NCBI GenBank assembly: GCA_004321885.1
Contig: SCQK01000012.1
Span: 1-4,650, forward strand
Origin: Patescibacteria group bacterium
GTDB lineage: Bacteria; Patescibacteriota; Patescibacteriia; Magasanikbacterales; GWA2-37-8
Direction: 5' to 3'
Length of the DNA stretch: 4,650 bases
The notes under the pieces are model-generated. The model worked only from the letters and a program-made list of their open reading frames with translations, did no database searches and had not been told where the DNA came from. Both the position numbers and the translations under genes were made by a program. This document shows, piece by piece, positions 1 through 4,650 of the stretch; the first letter of the stretch is position 1; every line of letters begins with the position of its first letter.

Positions 1-120
1 GATGTTTGATACGTCCCAAACAAAACGTAACAAACCTTGTCCTGATTCACGAACGCGAAAGGTCGAAAAACTTACTTATTGAAACGAGAAAGAGTGTCTT
101 AAAAAAGGGGTACTTGCCAA
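1..120. repeat. Left copy of a perfect 120-bp inverted repeat (terminal inverted repeat of the window); may extend beyond the window edge
   Basis: Bases 1-120 are the exact reverse complement of 4531-4650; I checked all twelve 10-mers by hand. Identity breaks at 121 (g, versus a expected from 4530). By eye the repeat is AT-rich and A-tract-rich and unlike its inner flanks. Confidence 0.95.
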
Positions 121-433
121 GGAGCTCGATGATTCGAGAGTGGAAGTTGGGTGGGGTATTCAGCTTATAGCTTTCGCTCCGCCAACCTCTGACTGGTTCA
201 TCGTGACCAATCTCTCCTGCTCCGCGCAGATCTTTTTTATCCAGCTCGAGACCTGTCTTTGCTTCGTAAAACTCGAGTAGCCAATCGTGCCGGCCGATTT
301 CGTTGTTCCCCACAAGGAGGAGCTCCGAGTCGCCGTCAACGAAGTATAGGAACTTATGGCCGCGATGCTTTGACGGATCGTAAGCGCACACTTCAATATC
401 GCGACCGTCATAGCAAACAAAAAAACGCTTCAT
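47..433 (-). CDS. Hypothetical 128-aa soluble protein; last gene of the murJ operon, translationally coupled. Its C-terminal ~24 aa and stop codon are encoded by the left repeat copy.
   Basis: ATG at 431-433 is preceded by a strong SD: minus-strand UAAGGAGAAAAGCA-AUG, where UAA is the murJ stop and GGAG is 7 nt upstream. The ORF is 128 codons. Codons from about residue 105 onward lie inside the repeat (positions <=120); the stop is at 44-46. No family recognised from the sequence alone. Confidence 0.6.
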   Translation of the reverse strand: MKRFFVCYDGRDIEVCAYDPSKHRGHKFLYFVDGDSELLLVGNNEIGRHDWLLEFYEAKTGLELDKKDLRGAGEIGHDEPVRGWRSESYKLNTPPNFHSRIIELLGKYPFFKTLFLVSISKFFDLSRS

Positions 434-444
434 TGCTTTTCTCC

Positions 445-2091
445 TTACTCATTGTTTGTTATAGCCTCGGTGGTAGGCAGGTTCTTCACCCGCAACCACC
501 GACGGGTCAAGGCGTTTTTGAGCTGTAATAATTCAGGCACCTTTAAGATATAACACAAGAGGCAATAAATTGCCAGACCGGCCAGACCCGCCACCGCTCC
601 TTGTCCGAAAATGCCCCAAAAATACCTTTGGTCAAAAATTTCCGCCAGCGGGTATTTCAAAAATTGCACGGCCAGGGCCATGGGAACGGTCGCGATAATA
701 ATTTTGTAAACGGAGGAGGTGAATGAAAGGGGCTGCTTCGCTTCGCTCGCAGTGACAATAGCGGGTGACCGACTTTTCAGCTCACTTCGCAGGGCCAGCG
801 ACAGGGCGGTGAAGTTTACCACAGCCGCGATGGAAAAGGCCAAAGCCAATCCGGCCACACATAGGGGTTTCATTAAAAGCAAAGAGGCGATGATGCCGAT
901 AAGTTCGGAAATAACGCCAATGACAAACGGGGTTTTGGTATTGGACAAGGCGTAGAAGGCGCGGGCGAGCAGGGGAATGAGCGCCTGGGCGAACAAACTC
1001 AACGCGAACAAAGCCAGGGCGTCGGCTGTGGCAATGGTGGCGGTCCAGTTAAATTCGCCGGTGCCCAGCACCACACGCACGATTTGCGCGCGCAACAGCA
1101 TCATTATTATGGAAAGCGGAACAATCAAAAAAATTATCTGGCGCATGGTGGCCGACAGATTTTTCACGAATTCTACGTGGTCGTTTTTGGCCGCGGCCGC
1201 CGACAGCACGGGAAACACCGCCATGGCAAACGGGATGCCGAAGATGCCGATGGGCACGGCCTGCAAATTGCTCGCGAAATTAAAAATTGCCACACTGCCG
1301 GCCGGCAAAAGCGACGCTAACATGGTGATAATCACCAAGTTAAGTTGGCTGACAGCTAAGCCCATGGTGCGCGGGGCCATCAGCTTGGCCACCGAGAGGG
1401 TATTTTTTTCACGCGGTCTGAAAATCCATTGCCAGCGCCAGCCGTTGGCGTAGGCGCTATACAGTTGAAGCAAAAAATGCATGGCCGCGCCCAAGACCAC
1501 GCCCCAGGCCAAGCCGGAGATGCCGATGGCCGGCACCAAAGCGACCGCGCCCACGATAATCCCCAAGTTGTAAAATATCGGGGCGATGGAGTACATGAAA
1601 AAACTGCGCAGTGATTGTAAGATACCGCCAAGCACCATGGACAGCCCGAGCAAAAAAGTGGAGCCAAACATGATGCGAGTGAAACTTATTACCAGCTCGC
1701 GGCTGAAGCCGTTAAACCCGGGCGCGATAATCGCGGCCAGGGCCGGGGTGAAAATTACACCGAGCGCGCTTAGGGCAAGAAGCGAAACAGCCGTAATGTT
1801 CAAAATGTTATTGGCCAGTTTCCAGGCCGGACTTTTGTCTTCGCCTTCGTGAAAAAGGCGGGTAAAGGTGGGAATAAAGGCGGCGCTAAGCGCGCCCACG
1901 ATGAGCAGGTTATAAATCAGGTCCGGTACTTTGAAAGCGGCGTAGTAGGCGTCCATTATCGGGCCCGCGCCAAAGTAGTGCGCAAAAATACGGTCGCGAA
2001 AAAGGCCGATGAGGCGGCTGATAAGAGTGGTGCCGGCGATAATAATAGCGGCACCGGTGATGGTTTTTGATTGGCCGTTGAGGAATGACAT
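445..2091 (-). CDS. murJ: Lipid II flippase MurJ (MviN), MOP superfamily, about 549 aa
   Basis: Long hydrophobic polytopic ORF. The N-terminal region RLIGLFRDRIFAHYFGAGPIMDAYYAAFKVPDLIYNLL..AFIP matches the conserved MurJ/MviN N-terminus (E. coli [30 protein letters not shown]). Start assigned to ATG 2089-2091 (MSFLNGQ...). The 17-codon upstream extension in the ORF track (to 2142) would translate the structured palindromic element and begins with TTG, so I rejected it. Stop is TAA at 445-447. Confidence 0.9.
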   Translation of the reverse strand: MSFLNGQSKTITGAAIIIAGTTLISRLIGLFRDRIFAHYFGAGPIMDAYYAAFKVPDLIYNLLIVGALSAAFIPTFTRLFHEGEDKSPAWKLANNILNITAVSLLALSALGVIFTPALAAIIAPGFNGFSRELVISFTRIMFGSTFLLGLSMVLGGILQSLRSFFMYSIAPIFYNLGIIVGAVALVPAIGISGLAWGVVLGAAMHFLLQLYSAYANGWRWQWIFRPREKNTLSVAKLMAPRTMGLAVSQLNLVIITMLASLLPAGSVAIFNFASNLQAVPIGIFGIPFAMAVFPVLSAAAAKNDHVEFVKNLSATMRQIIFLIVPLSIIMMLLRAQIVRVVLGTGEFNWTATIATADALALFALSLFAQALIPLLARAFYALSNTKTPFVIGVISELIGIIASLLLMKPLCVAGLALAFSIAAVVNFTALSLALRSELKSRSPAIVTASEAKQPLSFTSSVYKIIIATVPMALAVQFLKYPLAEIFDQRYFWGIFGQGAVAGLAGLAIYCLLCYILKVPELLQLKNALTRRWLRVKNLPTTEAITNNE

Positions 2092-2181
2092 GTCATTGCG
2101 AGGTCGCGTAAGCGACCGAAGCAATCCCATCCGTAATCGCAAGGAATTGCTTCGTCGGCCTACGGCCTCCTCGCAATGACA
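2091..2181 (-). promoter_or_regulatory. Nested-palindrome structured element filling the whole intergenic gap upstream of murJ. Candidates: cis-regulatory RNA or leader structure; REP- or MITE-like palindromic element.
   Basis: Outer 13-bp perfect inverted repeat: TGTCATTGCGAGG (2091-2103) with CCTCGCAATGACA (2169-2181). It encloses three hairpins with 0-2 nt linkers: TCGC-GTAA-GCGA (2104-2115); CGAAGCAAT (2117-2125) with ATTGCTTCG (2146-2154), a 9-bp stem around a 20-nt interior; and GGCC-TAC-GGCC (2157-2167). The upstream gene's stop (TAG, 2182-2184) and the murJ ATG (2089-2091) abut the element directly. Confidence 0.55.
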
Positions 2182-2883
2182 CTACGATGGAGACAAATTC
2201 ACCGTCAGTATGGCCGTGGCCGTGCCTTGTGTGGCTGTTCCCGCGCTACTGGCGAACATGGAGCCGGAAATCTCGTCTTTGCTGAACGAAAATTGTTTGA
2301 CAGTGTCGCTCTCGCTTTCCAAATCAATTTTATAGCCTTTTTTTTGCAGTTCCACTTTGTAGTAGCCGATGACAAAATACGGCTCGGCGTTCATATTCTT
2401 CCATTCTATCTGCACCGTGTCGCGATGGTCGGAAACCGGCGACGCAATCATTTTCCAGATGTTCTTGGCCAGGGCCAGCCGCCCAGCGCCCGCGTCTGTG
2501 GAAGTCGGCGTTAGTTGGTCTTTGTTCATGGCCAAAAATAGGGGAGATAAAATCACTTTTGGAAAAAAGGCCGCGATTTCCACGCCGCGGTTTTTGTATT
2601 TGCCCGAGACAAAAGTGATGCGCTCTATATTGTCTTTGTCGTAAAGAGGAATGTCTTGGGGAAAATTTTCCGGTACGGATTTCAAATTTTGCGGACCGCT
2701 GCCCATGGACAGGCGCAAGACAATCGCGCCGACGATGATGACAATCAAAAGACAACCGCAGCCGCCGAGGCAGGCGCGTTTTATTGAAGAAAAGGCCGAG
2801 TATTTCTTGCTGATTTCTCCAATCGGCGGTTCAACAATTTCCACGTCCTTAATAAGGTCGCGTCGCATAAATACAATTGTCAT
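2182..2883 (-). CDS. Hypothetical single-pass membrane protein (233 aa): short cytoplasmic N-terminus, one TM helix, about 170-aa extracytoplasmic domain. First gene of the murJ operon.
   Basis: ORF of 233 codons with one strongly hydrophobic segment (CLLIVIIVGAIVL) after a K/R-containing N-terminus. The start could be ATG 2881-2883 or the in-frame ATG six codons downstream (2866-2868). No clear SD, and a hairpin overlaps the first ATG. No family recognised. Confidence 0.65.
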   Translation of the reverse strand: MTIVFMRRDLIKDVEIVEPPIGEISKKYSAFSSIKRACLGGCGCLLIVIIVGAIVLRLSMGSGPQNLKSVPENFPQDIPLYDKDNIERITFVSGKYKNRGVEIAAFFPKVILSPLFLAMNKDQLTPTSTDAGAGRLALAKNIWKMIASPVSDHRDTVQIEWKNMNAEPYFVIGYYKVELQKKGYKIDLESESDTVKQFSFSKDEISGSMFASSAGTATQGTATAILTVNLSPS

Positions 2884-2902
2884 CCTGAACTAGTTTCAGG
2901 AT
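2882..2902 (-). promoter_or_regulatory. 8-bp stem hairpin overlapping the first ATG of the 233-aa gene (candidate translational control element)
   Basis: A-TCCTGAA-CTAGT-TTCAGGA-T forms a perfect 8-bp stem with a 5-nt loop. The start codon at 2881-2883 lies at the edge of the stem. Confidence 0.3.
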
Positions 2903-2916
2903 CTCAGGTCGCATTT

Positions 2917-2945
2917 ATTGTAGCATGTTTCCCTCCCCTTGACAA
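2917..2945 (-). promoter_or_regulatory. Sigma70-like promoter for the 233-aa gene and murJ operon (-35 TTGTCA, 17-nt spacer, -10 TACAAT on the minus strand)
   Basis: Plus-strand coordinates: -10 is ATTGTA at 2917-2922 (reverse complement TACAAT). The spacer 2923-2939 is 17 nt. -35 is TGACAA at 2940-2945 (reverse complement TTGTCA). The predicted transcription start near 2910 gives a short leader containing the start-codon hairpin. Confidence 0.4.
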
Positions 2946-2966
2946 AAGTTTTATCCGTGGTATTAT
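2939..2966 (+). promoter_or_regulatory. Strong sigma70-like plus-strand promoter with an extended -10 (TTGACA, 16-nt spacer, TGgTATTAT). It is divergent from the operon promoter, with overlapping -35 elements.
   Basis: TTGACA at 2939-2944 is a perfect -35. TG at 2958-2959 and TATTAT at 2961-2966 form an extended -10. No plus-strand ORF lies downstream; the transcript would be non-coding. Confidence 0.45.
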
Positions 2967-2973
2967 TAGTTTA

Positions 2974-3030
2974 GAAAAAGACTTTCGGCCGTGGTTCATA
3001 TACCACAAACTGGCGGAAAGCCTTTTTTGT
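2974..3030 (+). ncRNA. Candidate small non-coding RNA or 3'UTR-antisense transcript driven by the plus-strand promoter
   Basis: The predicted start is near 2974. Hairpin GTGGT-TCATAT-ACCAC (2991-3006) can be extended by GCC/GGC pairing (2988-2990 with 3012-3014). A short GGC-GGAAA-GCC stem follows, then TTTTTTGTTTT at 3023-3033. The region has no ATG and no ORF. The stems are weak, so termination is uncertain. If the transcript reads through, it is antisense to the 137-aa gene. Confidence 0.25.
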
Positions 3031-3031
3031 T

Positions 3032-3445
3032 TTATTCATCAGGAAATACCGAGATTAGCCATTTCTGATTATTCTTTTTATTTTGTTTGATTTGAACGAG
3101 AAATTTTTCTCTGTCTTTAGTTACGCCGACGAAACGGTGTAATATTTCAGATTTATCGTTCGGGTTATCTTTGGAAATCGGATCAAAGCGGCAATTTTGA
3201 ATTAGTTCAATTGCGCAAGGGTAATATTTCACTCGTCTAATTTTATCTCTGTGATTAAGTTTCGTGTGCAGGTGTTGCCAAAAAAGTTCTAAAAAGATTT
3301 TTTCTTTGTTGAAATACGCCGAACGGATATACGGACGGCGTTTTGTTTTTCTCTTTATTTTTTGGTATTGCGCGAATGCGTGTTTGTAAACTTCGCTGAA
3401 ATTCGTGCCTGACAATTTTGATGATTTGACTTTGTAAACCTCCAT
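3032..3445 (-). CDS. Hypothetical 137-aa lysine/arginine-rich basic protein encoded by AT-rich sequence; function unknown. Possibilities are nucleic-acid binding, a toxin-like protein or a phage-like protein.
   Basis: A 137-codon ORF in AT-rich DNA, where stop codons are expected to be frequent, so it is unlikely to be spurious. There is a single ATG candidate at 3443-3445 with no SD. A putative extended -10 about 10 nt upstream suggests a leaderless or near-leaderless mRNA. No conserved catalytic motif recognised. I looked for an HEPN Rx4-6H motif and found none. Confidence 0.55.
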   Translation of the reverse strand: MEVYKVKSSKLSGTNFSEVYKHAFAQYQKIKRKTKRRPYIRSAYFNKEKIFLELFWQHLHTKLNHRDKIRRVKYYPCAIELIQNCRFDPISKDNPNDKSEILHRFVGVTKDREKFLVQIKQNKKNNQKWLISVFPDE

Positions 3446-3454
3446 AGTGCGGAT

Positions 3455-3463
3455 ATTTTATCA
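3455..3463 (-). promoter_or_regulatory. Extended -10 element (TGATAAAAT on the minus strand) about 10 nt upstream of the 137-aa gene ATG; possible leaderless start
   Basis: Minus strand reads cGTGATAAAATatccgcactATG. The TGnTAAAAT pattern matches an extended -10. The -35 is poor. Confidence 0.3.
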
Positions 3464-3535
3464 CGATAAGGGATAAAATAAAAGATTCGCGGGTTCGCAC
3501 AAAAAAACCGGCGTGAGGTGCTGGTTGCGCAATTT

Positions 3536-4189
3536 TCACGGTTCCGATATTCGCCAGCCAACATTTGGCACTTGTACGAACATCATAGATTCAGATTCGT
3601 CGTCCGCGTAGACCTCGTAGAATCTTGCTTCACCAAGATCCTTGGTTATTTTCATCTCGGCTCGATTGAGCCAGCCAGCAATATCTGCAGTGCCGCCGGC
3701 GGAATGGATGGTTTGGAAAAGTTCGTTGCATCGACGTCGGCTGTCTTGGTCGGGCGCACAGGCCGCTAGCACCAAGTTTAGATCTTGCGCCTGCCAACCG
3801 GCGGCATACAACTTGAACGACTCCTCAGGCGATGCCAATGGAAGCAGTGCGCGTTCTTGTAATTTGGATATCCAGACAAATTTTATTACCCACAAATCTA
3901 ATATTGGGTCAATGTAGGCAGAACGCGGGTTTGCTTTTACTACTTCGGCGCCGTATGGCATTGCCATCAGTTTTGTTTTACCGGCTTCTAAATCAATTGG
4001 ATAACCCGGTGAGGAATATCCGATAACGGAGCCATTGATCCTATCGCGCGTGTCGTTTATAAAAACATAATAATCTGGCATGATTAGGAATATTTTTAAG
4101 ATGCCAATAATTAATAGTATTAAAATTATAAATAGTGTGCTTATTAAAAGTTTTTTGAATCTCCTCATATGACATGAAGTTAACTTCAT
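3536..4189 (-). CDS. Hypothetical 217-aa protein with an N-terminal signal-anchor or TM helix and a C-terminal domain of roughly 170 aa predicted outside the cytoplasm; function unknown
   Basis: ATG at 4187-4189 is preceded by AAGAGGU, 11 nt upstream. An alternative in-frame ATG lies at 4166-4168. The N-terminus MKLTSCHMRRFKK is followed by a hydrophobic stretch of about 25 residues (LLISTLFIILILLIIGILKIFLIM). By eye the gene is GC-mosaic: the anchor region is very AT-rich and the C-terminal domain about half GC. Stop is TGA at 3536-3538. Confidence 0.65.
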   Translation of the reverse strand: MKLTSCHMRRFKKLLISTLFIILILLIIGILKIFLIMPDYYVFINDTRDRINGSVIGYSSPGYPIDLEAGKTKLMAMPYGAEVVKANPRSAYIDPILDLWVIKFVWISKLQERALLPLASPEESFKLYAAGWQAQDLNLVLAACAPDQDSRRRCNELFQTIHSAGGTADIAGWLNRAEMKITKDLGEARFYEVYADDESESMMFVQVPNVGWRISEP

Positions 4190-4224
4190 TCTTAAATTTA
4201 CCTCTTTTGTGGAAATTTGTAAAC

Positions 4225-4245
4225 AAAAAACCGACTGGGTGTCGG
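4225..4245 (-). terminator. Rho-independent terminator on the minus strand (CCGAC-ACCCA-GUCGG followed by UUUUUUGUUU)
   Basis: Plus strand reads AAAAAA (4225-4230), CCGAC (4231-4235), TGGGT (4236-4240), GTCGG (4241-4245). On the minus strand this is a 5-bp GC-rich stem with a 5-nt loop followed directly by six U residues. It sits between the GC-rich fragment and the 217-aa gene. Confidence 0.5.
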
Positions 4246-4354
4246 GGGACCGCCTGTATAGCCATCAGGCTGGCTGCCACAGGACGTGGCGAGGGAAGGT
4301 GCTTACAGCGAGGCGAAGAAGCCGGGCAGGGCCGGCGCTATCTCGCGGGATGAG

Positions 4355-4650
4355 TTAGACCCGCTTTGGGGTTTGGAGCGGCACGCCCACTTCCACAATG
4401 ATGGCACAGTACCACGGATCGAACATCATGATCCGTGTGATGGCCTGTTCCACCTCGGCCCGTTCCATGCCTTCCGCCACCACCTTGCCGAGGCGCACCG
4501 CCATCCAGCGGGATGCCGGGTTGTGTGGCTTTGGCAAGTACCCCTTTTTTAAGACACTCTTTCTCGTTTCAATAAGTAAGTTTTTCGACCTTTCGCGTTC
4601 GTGAATCAGGACAAGGTTTGTTACGTTTTGTTTGGGACGTATCAAACATC
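4355..4650 (-). CDS. 3' portion of a GC-rich gene; product unknown. The frame stays open through the right repeat copy to the window edge. It is either a gene continuing beyond the window or a remnant truncated at the repeat junction.
   Basis: Stop TAA at 4355-4357. The reading frame is open from 4358 to 4650. The first codon in the ORF track is TTG at 4643-4645, which is not a real start. The non-repeat part (4358-4530, ...ASRWMAVRLGKVVAEGMERAEVEQAITRIMMFDPWYCAIIVEVGVPLQTPKRV) looks GC-rich by eye. The repeat part is AT-rich, and there is a sharp compositional break at 4530/4531. Confidence 0.35.
   Translation of the reverse strand, partial: CLIRPKQNVTNLVLIHERERSKNLLIETRKSVLKKGYLPKPHNPASRWMAVRLGKVVAEGMERAEVEQAITRIMMFDPWYCAIIVEVGVPLQTPKRV
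4531..4650. repeat. Right copy of the perfect 120-bp inverted repeat
   Basis: Exact reverse complement of 1-120 (120/120). Identity ends at 4530. Confidence 0.95.

Follow-up and report, generated by a model that had tools for sequence, protein, structure and literature searches.

We analyzed a 4,650-nucleotide (nt) contig from a Patescibacteria group bacterium (SCQK01000012.1, assembly GCA_004321885.1; this whole stretch is referred to as the window) that carries murJ and that begins and ends with two perfect, inverted copies of a 120-nt sequence, here called X. We found that the arms of this inverted repeat are one nucleotide shorter than the largest k-mer used by the assembler. Very probably, the 120-nt arms are the graph overlap of a contig that joins one repeat node at both ends, in opposite orientations. 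The arm length of 120 is a technical value and not the size of a biological terminal repeat, and no "120-bp terminal inverted repeat element" really exists in this DNA. An earlier description made from the letters alone (the sequence-only reading) had the 120-bp repeats bracketing a murJ element, which is misleading because 120 is the technical length. An inverted repeat around the murJ locus of this Candidate Phyla Radiation (CPR) genome, at least 121 bp long and uncharacterised, is probably real.

The inverted repeat at the ends of the contig

Bases 1-120 and 4531-4650 were reverse complements over their full length (120/120 nt, 100%), with a spacer of 4410 nt between them. A repeat search and a script agreed on this, and on the abrupt end of identity at 121/4530, both of which the sequence-only reading had reported. 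Beyond the boundary, X is followed by GGAGC on the left and by AGCCA on the right (read as the reverse complement), and in both cases the boundary is preceded by ...GCCAA. All other inverted repeats in the window were at most 27 nt long and at most 93% identical, the next best having 25-27 nt at 74-80%, so a chance origin of the 120-nt repeat can be excluded, as had been argued from its length. The G+C content of X is 39%, compared with 49% for the interior; in the stretches of interior next to X, it is about 50% (left) and about 60% (right). The repeat had been described as AT-rich and low-complexity. It is indeed A-rich (46 of 120 positions are A), yet it is neither low-complexity sequence nor a simple repeat.

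X sits at true contig ends, since the window is a complete 4650-bp NCBI contig. Four open reading frames (ORFs) of the window are exactly the NCBI proteins TAN33164.1 (MurJ), TAN33165.1, TAN33166.1 and TAN33167.1, all from a single 4650-bp contig and recorded as "MAG: Patescibacteria group bacterium" (metagenome-assembled genome; locus tags EPN28_02885-02895).

The arm length equals the overlap of the assembly graph

The window could be linked to a published sequencing project. A Logan contig, SRR8426592_150265 (4138 nt; L002), is 100% identical to window 4228..91, and its run lies within the series SRR8426587-SRR8426598, shotgun runs of Oak Ridge groundwater in PRJNA513876 (Tian et al. 2020, Microbiome 8:51; PMC7137472). 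Because SRR8426592 falls within that series, the Logan match ties the window to a project assembled with IDBA-UD, for which the settings were "--mink 31 --maxk 121 --step 10" (PMC7137472). The reads were 2x151, from ligation-based KAPA Hyper Prep libraries of genomic DNA, with no amplification or multiple displacement amplification (MDA) step described (PMC7137472).

The arm length of 120 nt equals the maxk of 121 minus 1. Contigs from a de Bruijn graph built at k = 121 overlap their neighbors by k-1 = 120 bases wherever they break off at a branch, and the graph of IDBA, in which the vertices are k-mers, is of this kind. The Logan contig offers a second assembly at a different k. For Logan, k is 31, and inside an accession "all 31-mers are distinct" (PMC12424806), so that neighboring Logan contigs share 30 nt. 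L002 ends at window base 91, which is 30 nt (k-1) into X counted from the same inner boundary; this comparison concerns the left junction only.

We modeled the situation with a toy bidirected de Bruijn graph of a genome with the order U1-R-I-rc(R)-U2, in which I was window 121-4530, R was a repeat ending in X, and rc denotes the reverse complement. At k = 121, a repeat R no shorter than 121 nt placed I in a unitig of 4650 nt that matched the window exactly; at k = 31, this unitig had arms of 30 nt. When R was exactly 120 nt and edges were made from (k+1)-mers, there was no break. It follows that the real repeat would be at least 121 bp. The sequence-only reading had pointed out that the window starts and ends exactly on the repeat, which could therefore be longer, and both parts of that remark hold, the window being the whole contig. 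One of the explanations it had listed, a contig ending in a collapsed repeat, is the one that fits the arms of maxk-1 and the stop of the k = 31 assembly within X. Two others on its list, a pair of inverted dispersed repeats just beyond the window and a segment that inverts by recombination, may yet describe the biology beneath, though we found no transposase and no further copy of X.

The sequence of events would be as follows. At its final k of 121, IDBA-UD would have joined the 4410-bp interior at each end to one repeat node. The node would have been entered in opposite orientations, so that the contig prints the inner 120 bases twice, once at each end and as reverse complements of each other. 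The biology beneath would be a sequence of at least 121 bp, inverted on both sides of a 4.4-kb chromosomal segment made up of the murJ core pair and strain-specific genes, in a Magasanikbacteria-like CPR bacterium from Oak Ridge groundwater.

The window shares with k-1 end overlaps at collapsed repeats the same arm length rule, the position at exact contig ends, the 100% identity, the k = 31 counterpart and the result of the toy graph. What is particular here is that both ends meet one node in opposite orientation, a topology that requires the segment to lie between inverted repeat copies of at least 121 bp. A direct terminal overlap of k length is a sign used to call circular contigs, and X is the inverted-orientation counterpart of that sign. 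In the literature on assembly artefacts with inverted terminal repeats (ITRs), our sole find was a formal graph-theory preprint, which is not directly applicable. The practical caution is that terminal inverted or direct repeats of k-1 or k length should not be taken for transposons, linear replicons or "complete genomes with ITRs", and comparing arm length with the assembler k is a quick filter in genome scans.

Several points weigh against this interpretation. The k-1 overlap of IDBA-UD contigs was taken from general knowledge of the algorithm and from the toy graph, not from an IDBA-UD run. No assembly log stands behind the assignment of the NCBI contig to the published IDBA-UD run, which is inferred from the matching project and from the accession of the run that yielded the identical Logan contig; a PCAP merge of assemblies is also mentioned in the same paper (PMC7137472). 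The right junction, 4530/4531, is without support from an independent assembly, as L002 stops at 4228, and a Logan contig for this junction, sought by way of its predicted partial product, was not on record. No neighboring contig with X was recovered, so the repeat node itself was not observed.

Evidence from the junctions

The frame at the right end of the window, which runs from the interior into X, had one homologue among 5.8 billion proteins. This was P0001, a protein of 119 amino acids (aa) encoded on Logan contig L001 from the sister sample SRR8426596. The similarity (86% at the amino acid level, 90% at the nucleotide level) covers window 4535..4356 (180 nt) and goes no further than the repeat boundary; the 60 N-terminal residues of P0001, which correspond in position to X, are unrelated to it. 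Because the homology stops at X, X replaces the 5' part of the gene, as at an insertion or rearrangement breakpoint. On this comparison, X is a rearrangement or insertion boundary and not a designed terminus. At the left junction, the final 24 codons and the stop codon of a 128-aa ORF lie inside X, so its 3' end comes from the repeat. This ORF had no homologue among the 5.8 billion proteins, and the left junction therefore cannot be judged by homology.

With no earlier branch, the NCBI contig enters X by 120 nt on each side and L002, on the left, by 30 nt. This suggests that essentially all of the assembled cells carry X at these positions. We therefore favor a single genome with two inverted copies of X, rather than a mixture of strains.

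Alternative explanations

Active inversion is one alternative. Recombination between the inverted copies, whether of X alone or of a longer repeat, would leave the 4.4-kb murJ segment present in both orientations. The small single-copy region (SSC) of plastids, which lies between the inverted repeats IRa and IRb, is a unique unitig with both ends on one repeat node, and its orientation is unresolvable by short reads. The window has the same graph topology, which fits either orientation or both. It differs from the plastid case in that it comes from a CPR bacterium, and any flip-flop isomers would be hypothetical here. An assembly cannot separate one orientation from two, and nothing in the data requires inversion. 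No site-specific recombinase gene was found in the window (Pfam, NCBIfam, PHROGs, PADLOC). We consider active inversion quite unlikely.

A tangle in the graph or the population would give the same contig without a two-copy inverted repeat in one genome. X would occur once per genome, or come from a mobile element or another organism; it could lie next to base 121 in some cells and next to base 4530 in others, or one of the two junctions could stem from chimeric reads, and the assembler would have merged both joins at one node. Related strains with other arrangements are present in the samples, as illustrated by L001, which is 90% identical to the window over 180 nt and differently organised, and both Logan contigs break at one common 30-mer. 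The gaps at the right junction and in the neighboring contigs, given above, also leave room for such a tangle. If many cells had no X at either end, however, the k = 121 graph would branch in the interior, and the contig would end there. In fact, the contig enters X by 120 nt at both ends, and the k = 31 Logan contig crosses the left junction unbranched. Random ligation chimeras would not attain assembly depth at k = 121, and the libraries were ligation-based with no MDA step described (PMC7137472). A tangle is thus very unlikely, and two inverted copies joined at one repeat node are the preferred explanation.

We give almost no weight to a genuine element, mobile or autonomous, bounded by 120-bp terminal inverted repeats, whether a transposon (complete, or non-autonomous with cargo) or a small linear replicon captured whole. 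Perfect inverted repeats at exact contig ends, AT-rich orphan genes between them and a right-hand gene truncated at the repeat boundary, as by insertion, would all be expected of such an element. The arm length is nevertheless the assembler k-1, with a 30-nt k-1 signature in the second assembly; at both inner boundaries, genes continue from the interior into the repeat; the cargo is a pair of core chromosomal genes whose synteny is conserved; and X was found nowhere else in the collections that we searched. No ORF of the window matched a transposase, recombinase, polymerase or phage family (Pfam, NCBIfam, PHROGs, PADLOC), in agreement with the sequence-only reading, which had seen no transposase in the interior. 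There was also no terminal protein, replication or structural gene in the window (Pfam, NCBIfam, PHROGs). A composite transposon shares with the window an inverted repeat that flanks a multi-gene segment and an inner boundary that truncates a gene. Unlike such an element, the window showed no transposase or insertion sequence (IS), its repeat X has no match among known sequences, and its cargo is a syntenic pair of core genes, so that membership cannot be claimed. Finally, we found no support for the foldback or amplification chimera that the sequence-only reading had also listed, given the ligation-based library, the unique and collinear 4.4-kb interior and the independent assembly that reproduced the left junction.

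Searches for further copies of X

Further copies of the 120-mer would, as the sequence-only reading had proposed, help to tell its explanations apart, but we found none in any of the collections. The exact 120-mer, a 37-mer (35-71), a 29-mer (92-120) and a 36-mer (1-36) were all absent from IMG/VR, from JGI metagenome contigs and from GTDB genome contigs. There was no blastn match to X in PLSDB or INPHARED, and the sole match among 70 fetched loci (blastn-short) was the 30-nt overlap with itself in L002. Residues encoded by X, taken from the two ORFs that enter it and from a concatenated six-frame translation, gave no hit among the 5.8 billion proteins, a search in which products cut at contig ends seem to be unindexed, as the 114-aa cut product of L002 itself was not returned.

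A vector, phiX or adapter origin of X was also considered and rejected, with no match in the plasmid and phage collections. Candidates for X, among which the data do not choose, are the end of an IS or of a miniature inverted-repeat transposable element (MITE) and the edge of a segmental duplication in inverted orientation.

The murJ neighborhood in relatives

We scanned GTDB species genomes with MurJ and obtained 68 loci, the best of which encoded proteins with up to 72% amino acid identity in Magasanikbacteria or Parcubacteria MAGs. The 12 closest relatives all had the same gene order: an RNase J-like beta-CASP gene on the opposite strand, a homologue of the 228-aa gene of the window, murJ, lepA (then a small ORF) and recJ. 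The window retains just the 228-aa gene and murJ of this order. Neither the left 445 nt nor the right 1.75 kb of the window had a nucleotide or translated match in the murJ neighborhoods of the relatives (blastn, tblastx), and the AT-rich block of the window had no tblastx match there. The synteny of the 228-aa gene with murJ across 12 relatives shows that the interior is chromosomal. It is a core chromosomal pair within strain-specific DNA, not the cargo module of a mobile element. In this genome, strain-specific DNA thus takes the place of the usual neighbors of the core murJ locus.

These comparisons bear on one further reading, which goes beyond the collapsed repeat node. A long inverted duplication, or an inverted pair of mobile elements, in this CPR genome of about 1 Mb might bracket, and possibly flip, a 4.4-kb murJ segment cut from the otherwise constant order RNase J, F0 (the family of the 228-aa protein), murJ, lepA and recJ. 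We consider this unlikely. If true, it would document something rarely recorded in a Patescibacteria genome, the rearrangement of a core locus through a repeat.

The 228-aa protein is encoded directly upstream of murJ in all 12 of the closest relatives (among loci L003-L028). This conserved position suggests that it could be a functional partner of the flippase MurJ. We also noticed that many GTDB-representative MAG contigs of the Third Party Annotation (TPA) type (L007, L008, L010, L015-L017 and others) have a clearly Magasanikbacteria-like murJ neighborhood, yet carry record titles that read "uncultured Gammaproteobacteria bacterium"; these submissions seem to have been mislabelled.

Genes and elements of the interior

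The features of the window are listed in Table 1. Identification of murJ, which had been made from the letters alone, was confirmed by profile matches (Pfam MurJ, 2e-91; TIGR01695, 7e-101). No RNA family was detected in the window with Rfam at E <= 1.

Table 1. Features of the window, with coordinates on the contig
Feature	Position	Strand	Description
Left copy of X	1..120	+	Inner 120 nt (k-1) of a collapsed repeat, very probably; cut off on the outside where the contig ends, which is no biological boundary
Orphan ORF, 128 aa	47..433	-	3' of murJ; strong AAGGAG ribosome-binding site; absent (as exact sequence) from the NCBI annotation
Single-copy interior	121..4530		4410 bp; chromosomal segment of a Magasanikbacteria-like CPR bacterium, as read from synteny; credible genes all on the minus strand
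murJ	445..2130	-	Lipid II flippase, 561 aa, TAN33164.1 (NCBI annotation)
Membrane-anchored protein, 228 aa	2182..2868	-	TAN33165.1 (family F0); conserved upstream partner of murJ in relatives
Basic protein, 137 aa	3032..3445	-	TAN33166.1; in the AT-rich block
Protein of 217 aa	3536..4189	-	Hydrophobic N-terminal segment; 210 aa in NCBI (TAN33167.1)
Terminator-like hairpin, then promoter-like site	4245-4231, then 4223-4195	-	Promoter-like site TTTACA, 17 nt, TAAATT; ahead of the 217-aa gene
3' gene fragment	4355..4530	-	58 codons and stop; frame open upstream through X to the contig end
Right copy of X	4531..4650	-	Inverted orientation; reverse-complement match and simulation

The start of murJ is likely to be the ATG at 2091, as the relatives align from residue 1-4 of the resulting 548-aa version. 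Between murJ and the 228-aa gene there is a 95-nt, near-perfect hairpin-forming element at 2088-2182 (GTCATTGCGAGG...CCTCGCAATGAC), with a predicted RNA minimum free energy of -48 kcal/mol, that contains both the NCBI murJ start (2130) and the start of the longest ORF (2142). The annotated N-terminus of MurJ is probably over-extended into this palindromic intergenic repeat. No copy of the element was found in the 68 related loci.

A second, short hairpin element (GTCATCCTGAACTAGTTTCAGGATCTCAGG) is located at 2872-2904, upstream of the 228-aa gene. There were three more intergenic copies of it, 94-97% identical, in L010 (CAZXML010000004.1), at 5033-5061, 6609-6636 and 8191-8223. It looks like a small dispersed palindromic repeat common to Magasanikbacteria-like genomes.

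The AT-rich two-gene block that had been pointed out in the interior was also found in our analysis. It holds the 217-aa and 137-aa genes, and its G+C content is 30-42% over approximately 2800-3500 and 4000-4300. Neither protein matched a family in Pfam, NCBIfam, PHROGs or PADLOC. Homologues of the 137-aa protein formed a family of 247 representative clusters at E <= 1e-3, and the same domain was present at the C-terminus of larger proteins. One of these, P0050 (685 aa), has an HNH nuclease domain and a NACHT/NB-ARC domain, a STAND-type (signal transduction ATPases with numerous domains) ATPase; another, P0088 (736 aa), has otherwise just a weak AAA_16 match. These domain combinations may hint that the 137-aa family is a defence or effector-type module.

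Two short sequences at the right side of the interior are shared with the Logan contigs. A 40-nt noncoding stretch downstream of the small gene (window 4264-4303; L001 1028-1066) is 87.5% conserved and had no match in Rfam; in L001, an extra 68-aa gene lies between it and the P0001 gene. The 30-mer TTTTGTTTACAAATTTCCACAAAAGAGGTA (window 4199-4228) starts both Logan contigs (L001 1-30 and L002 1-30), from two samples, and is followed by different genes. It is a branch node in both contigs, and it overlaps the promoter-like site just past the terminator-like hairpin. From this arrangement, the gene island appears hypervariable, and TTTTGTTTACAAATTTCCACAAAAGAGGTA looks like either a promoter cassette that has been reused there or a point of recombination.

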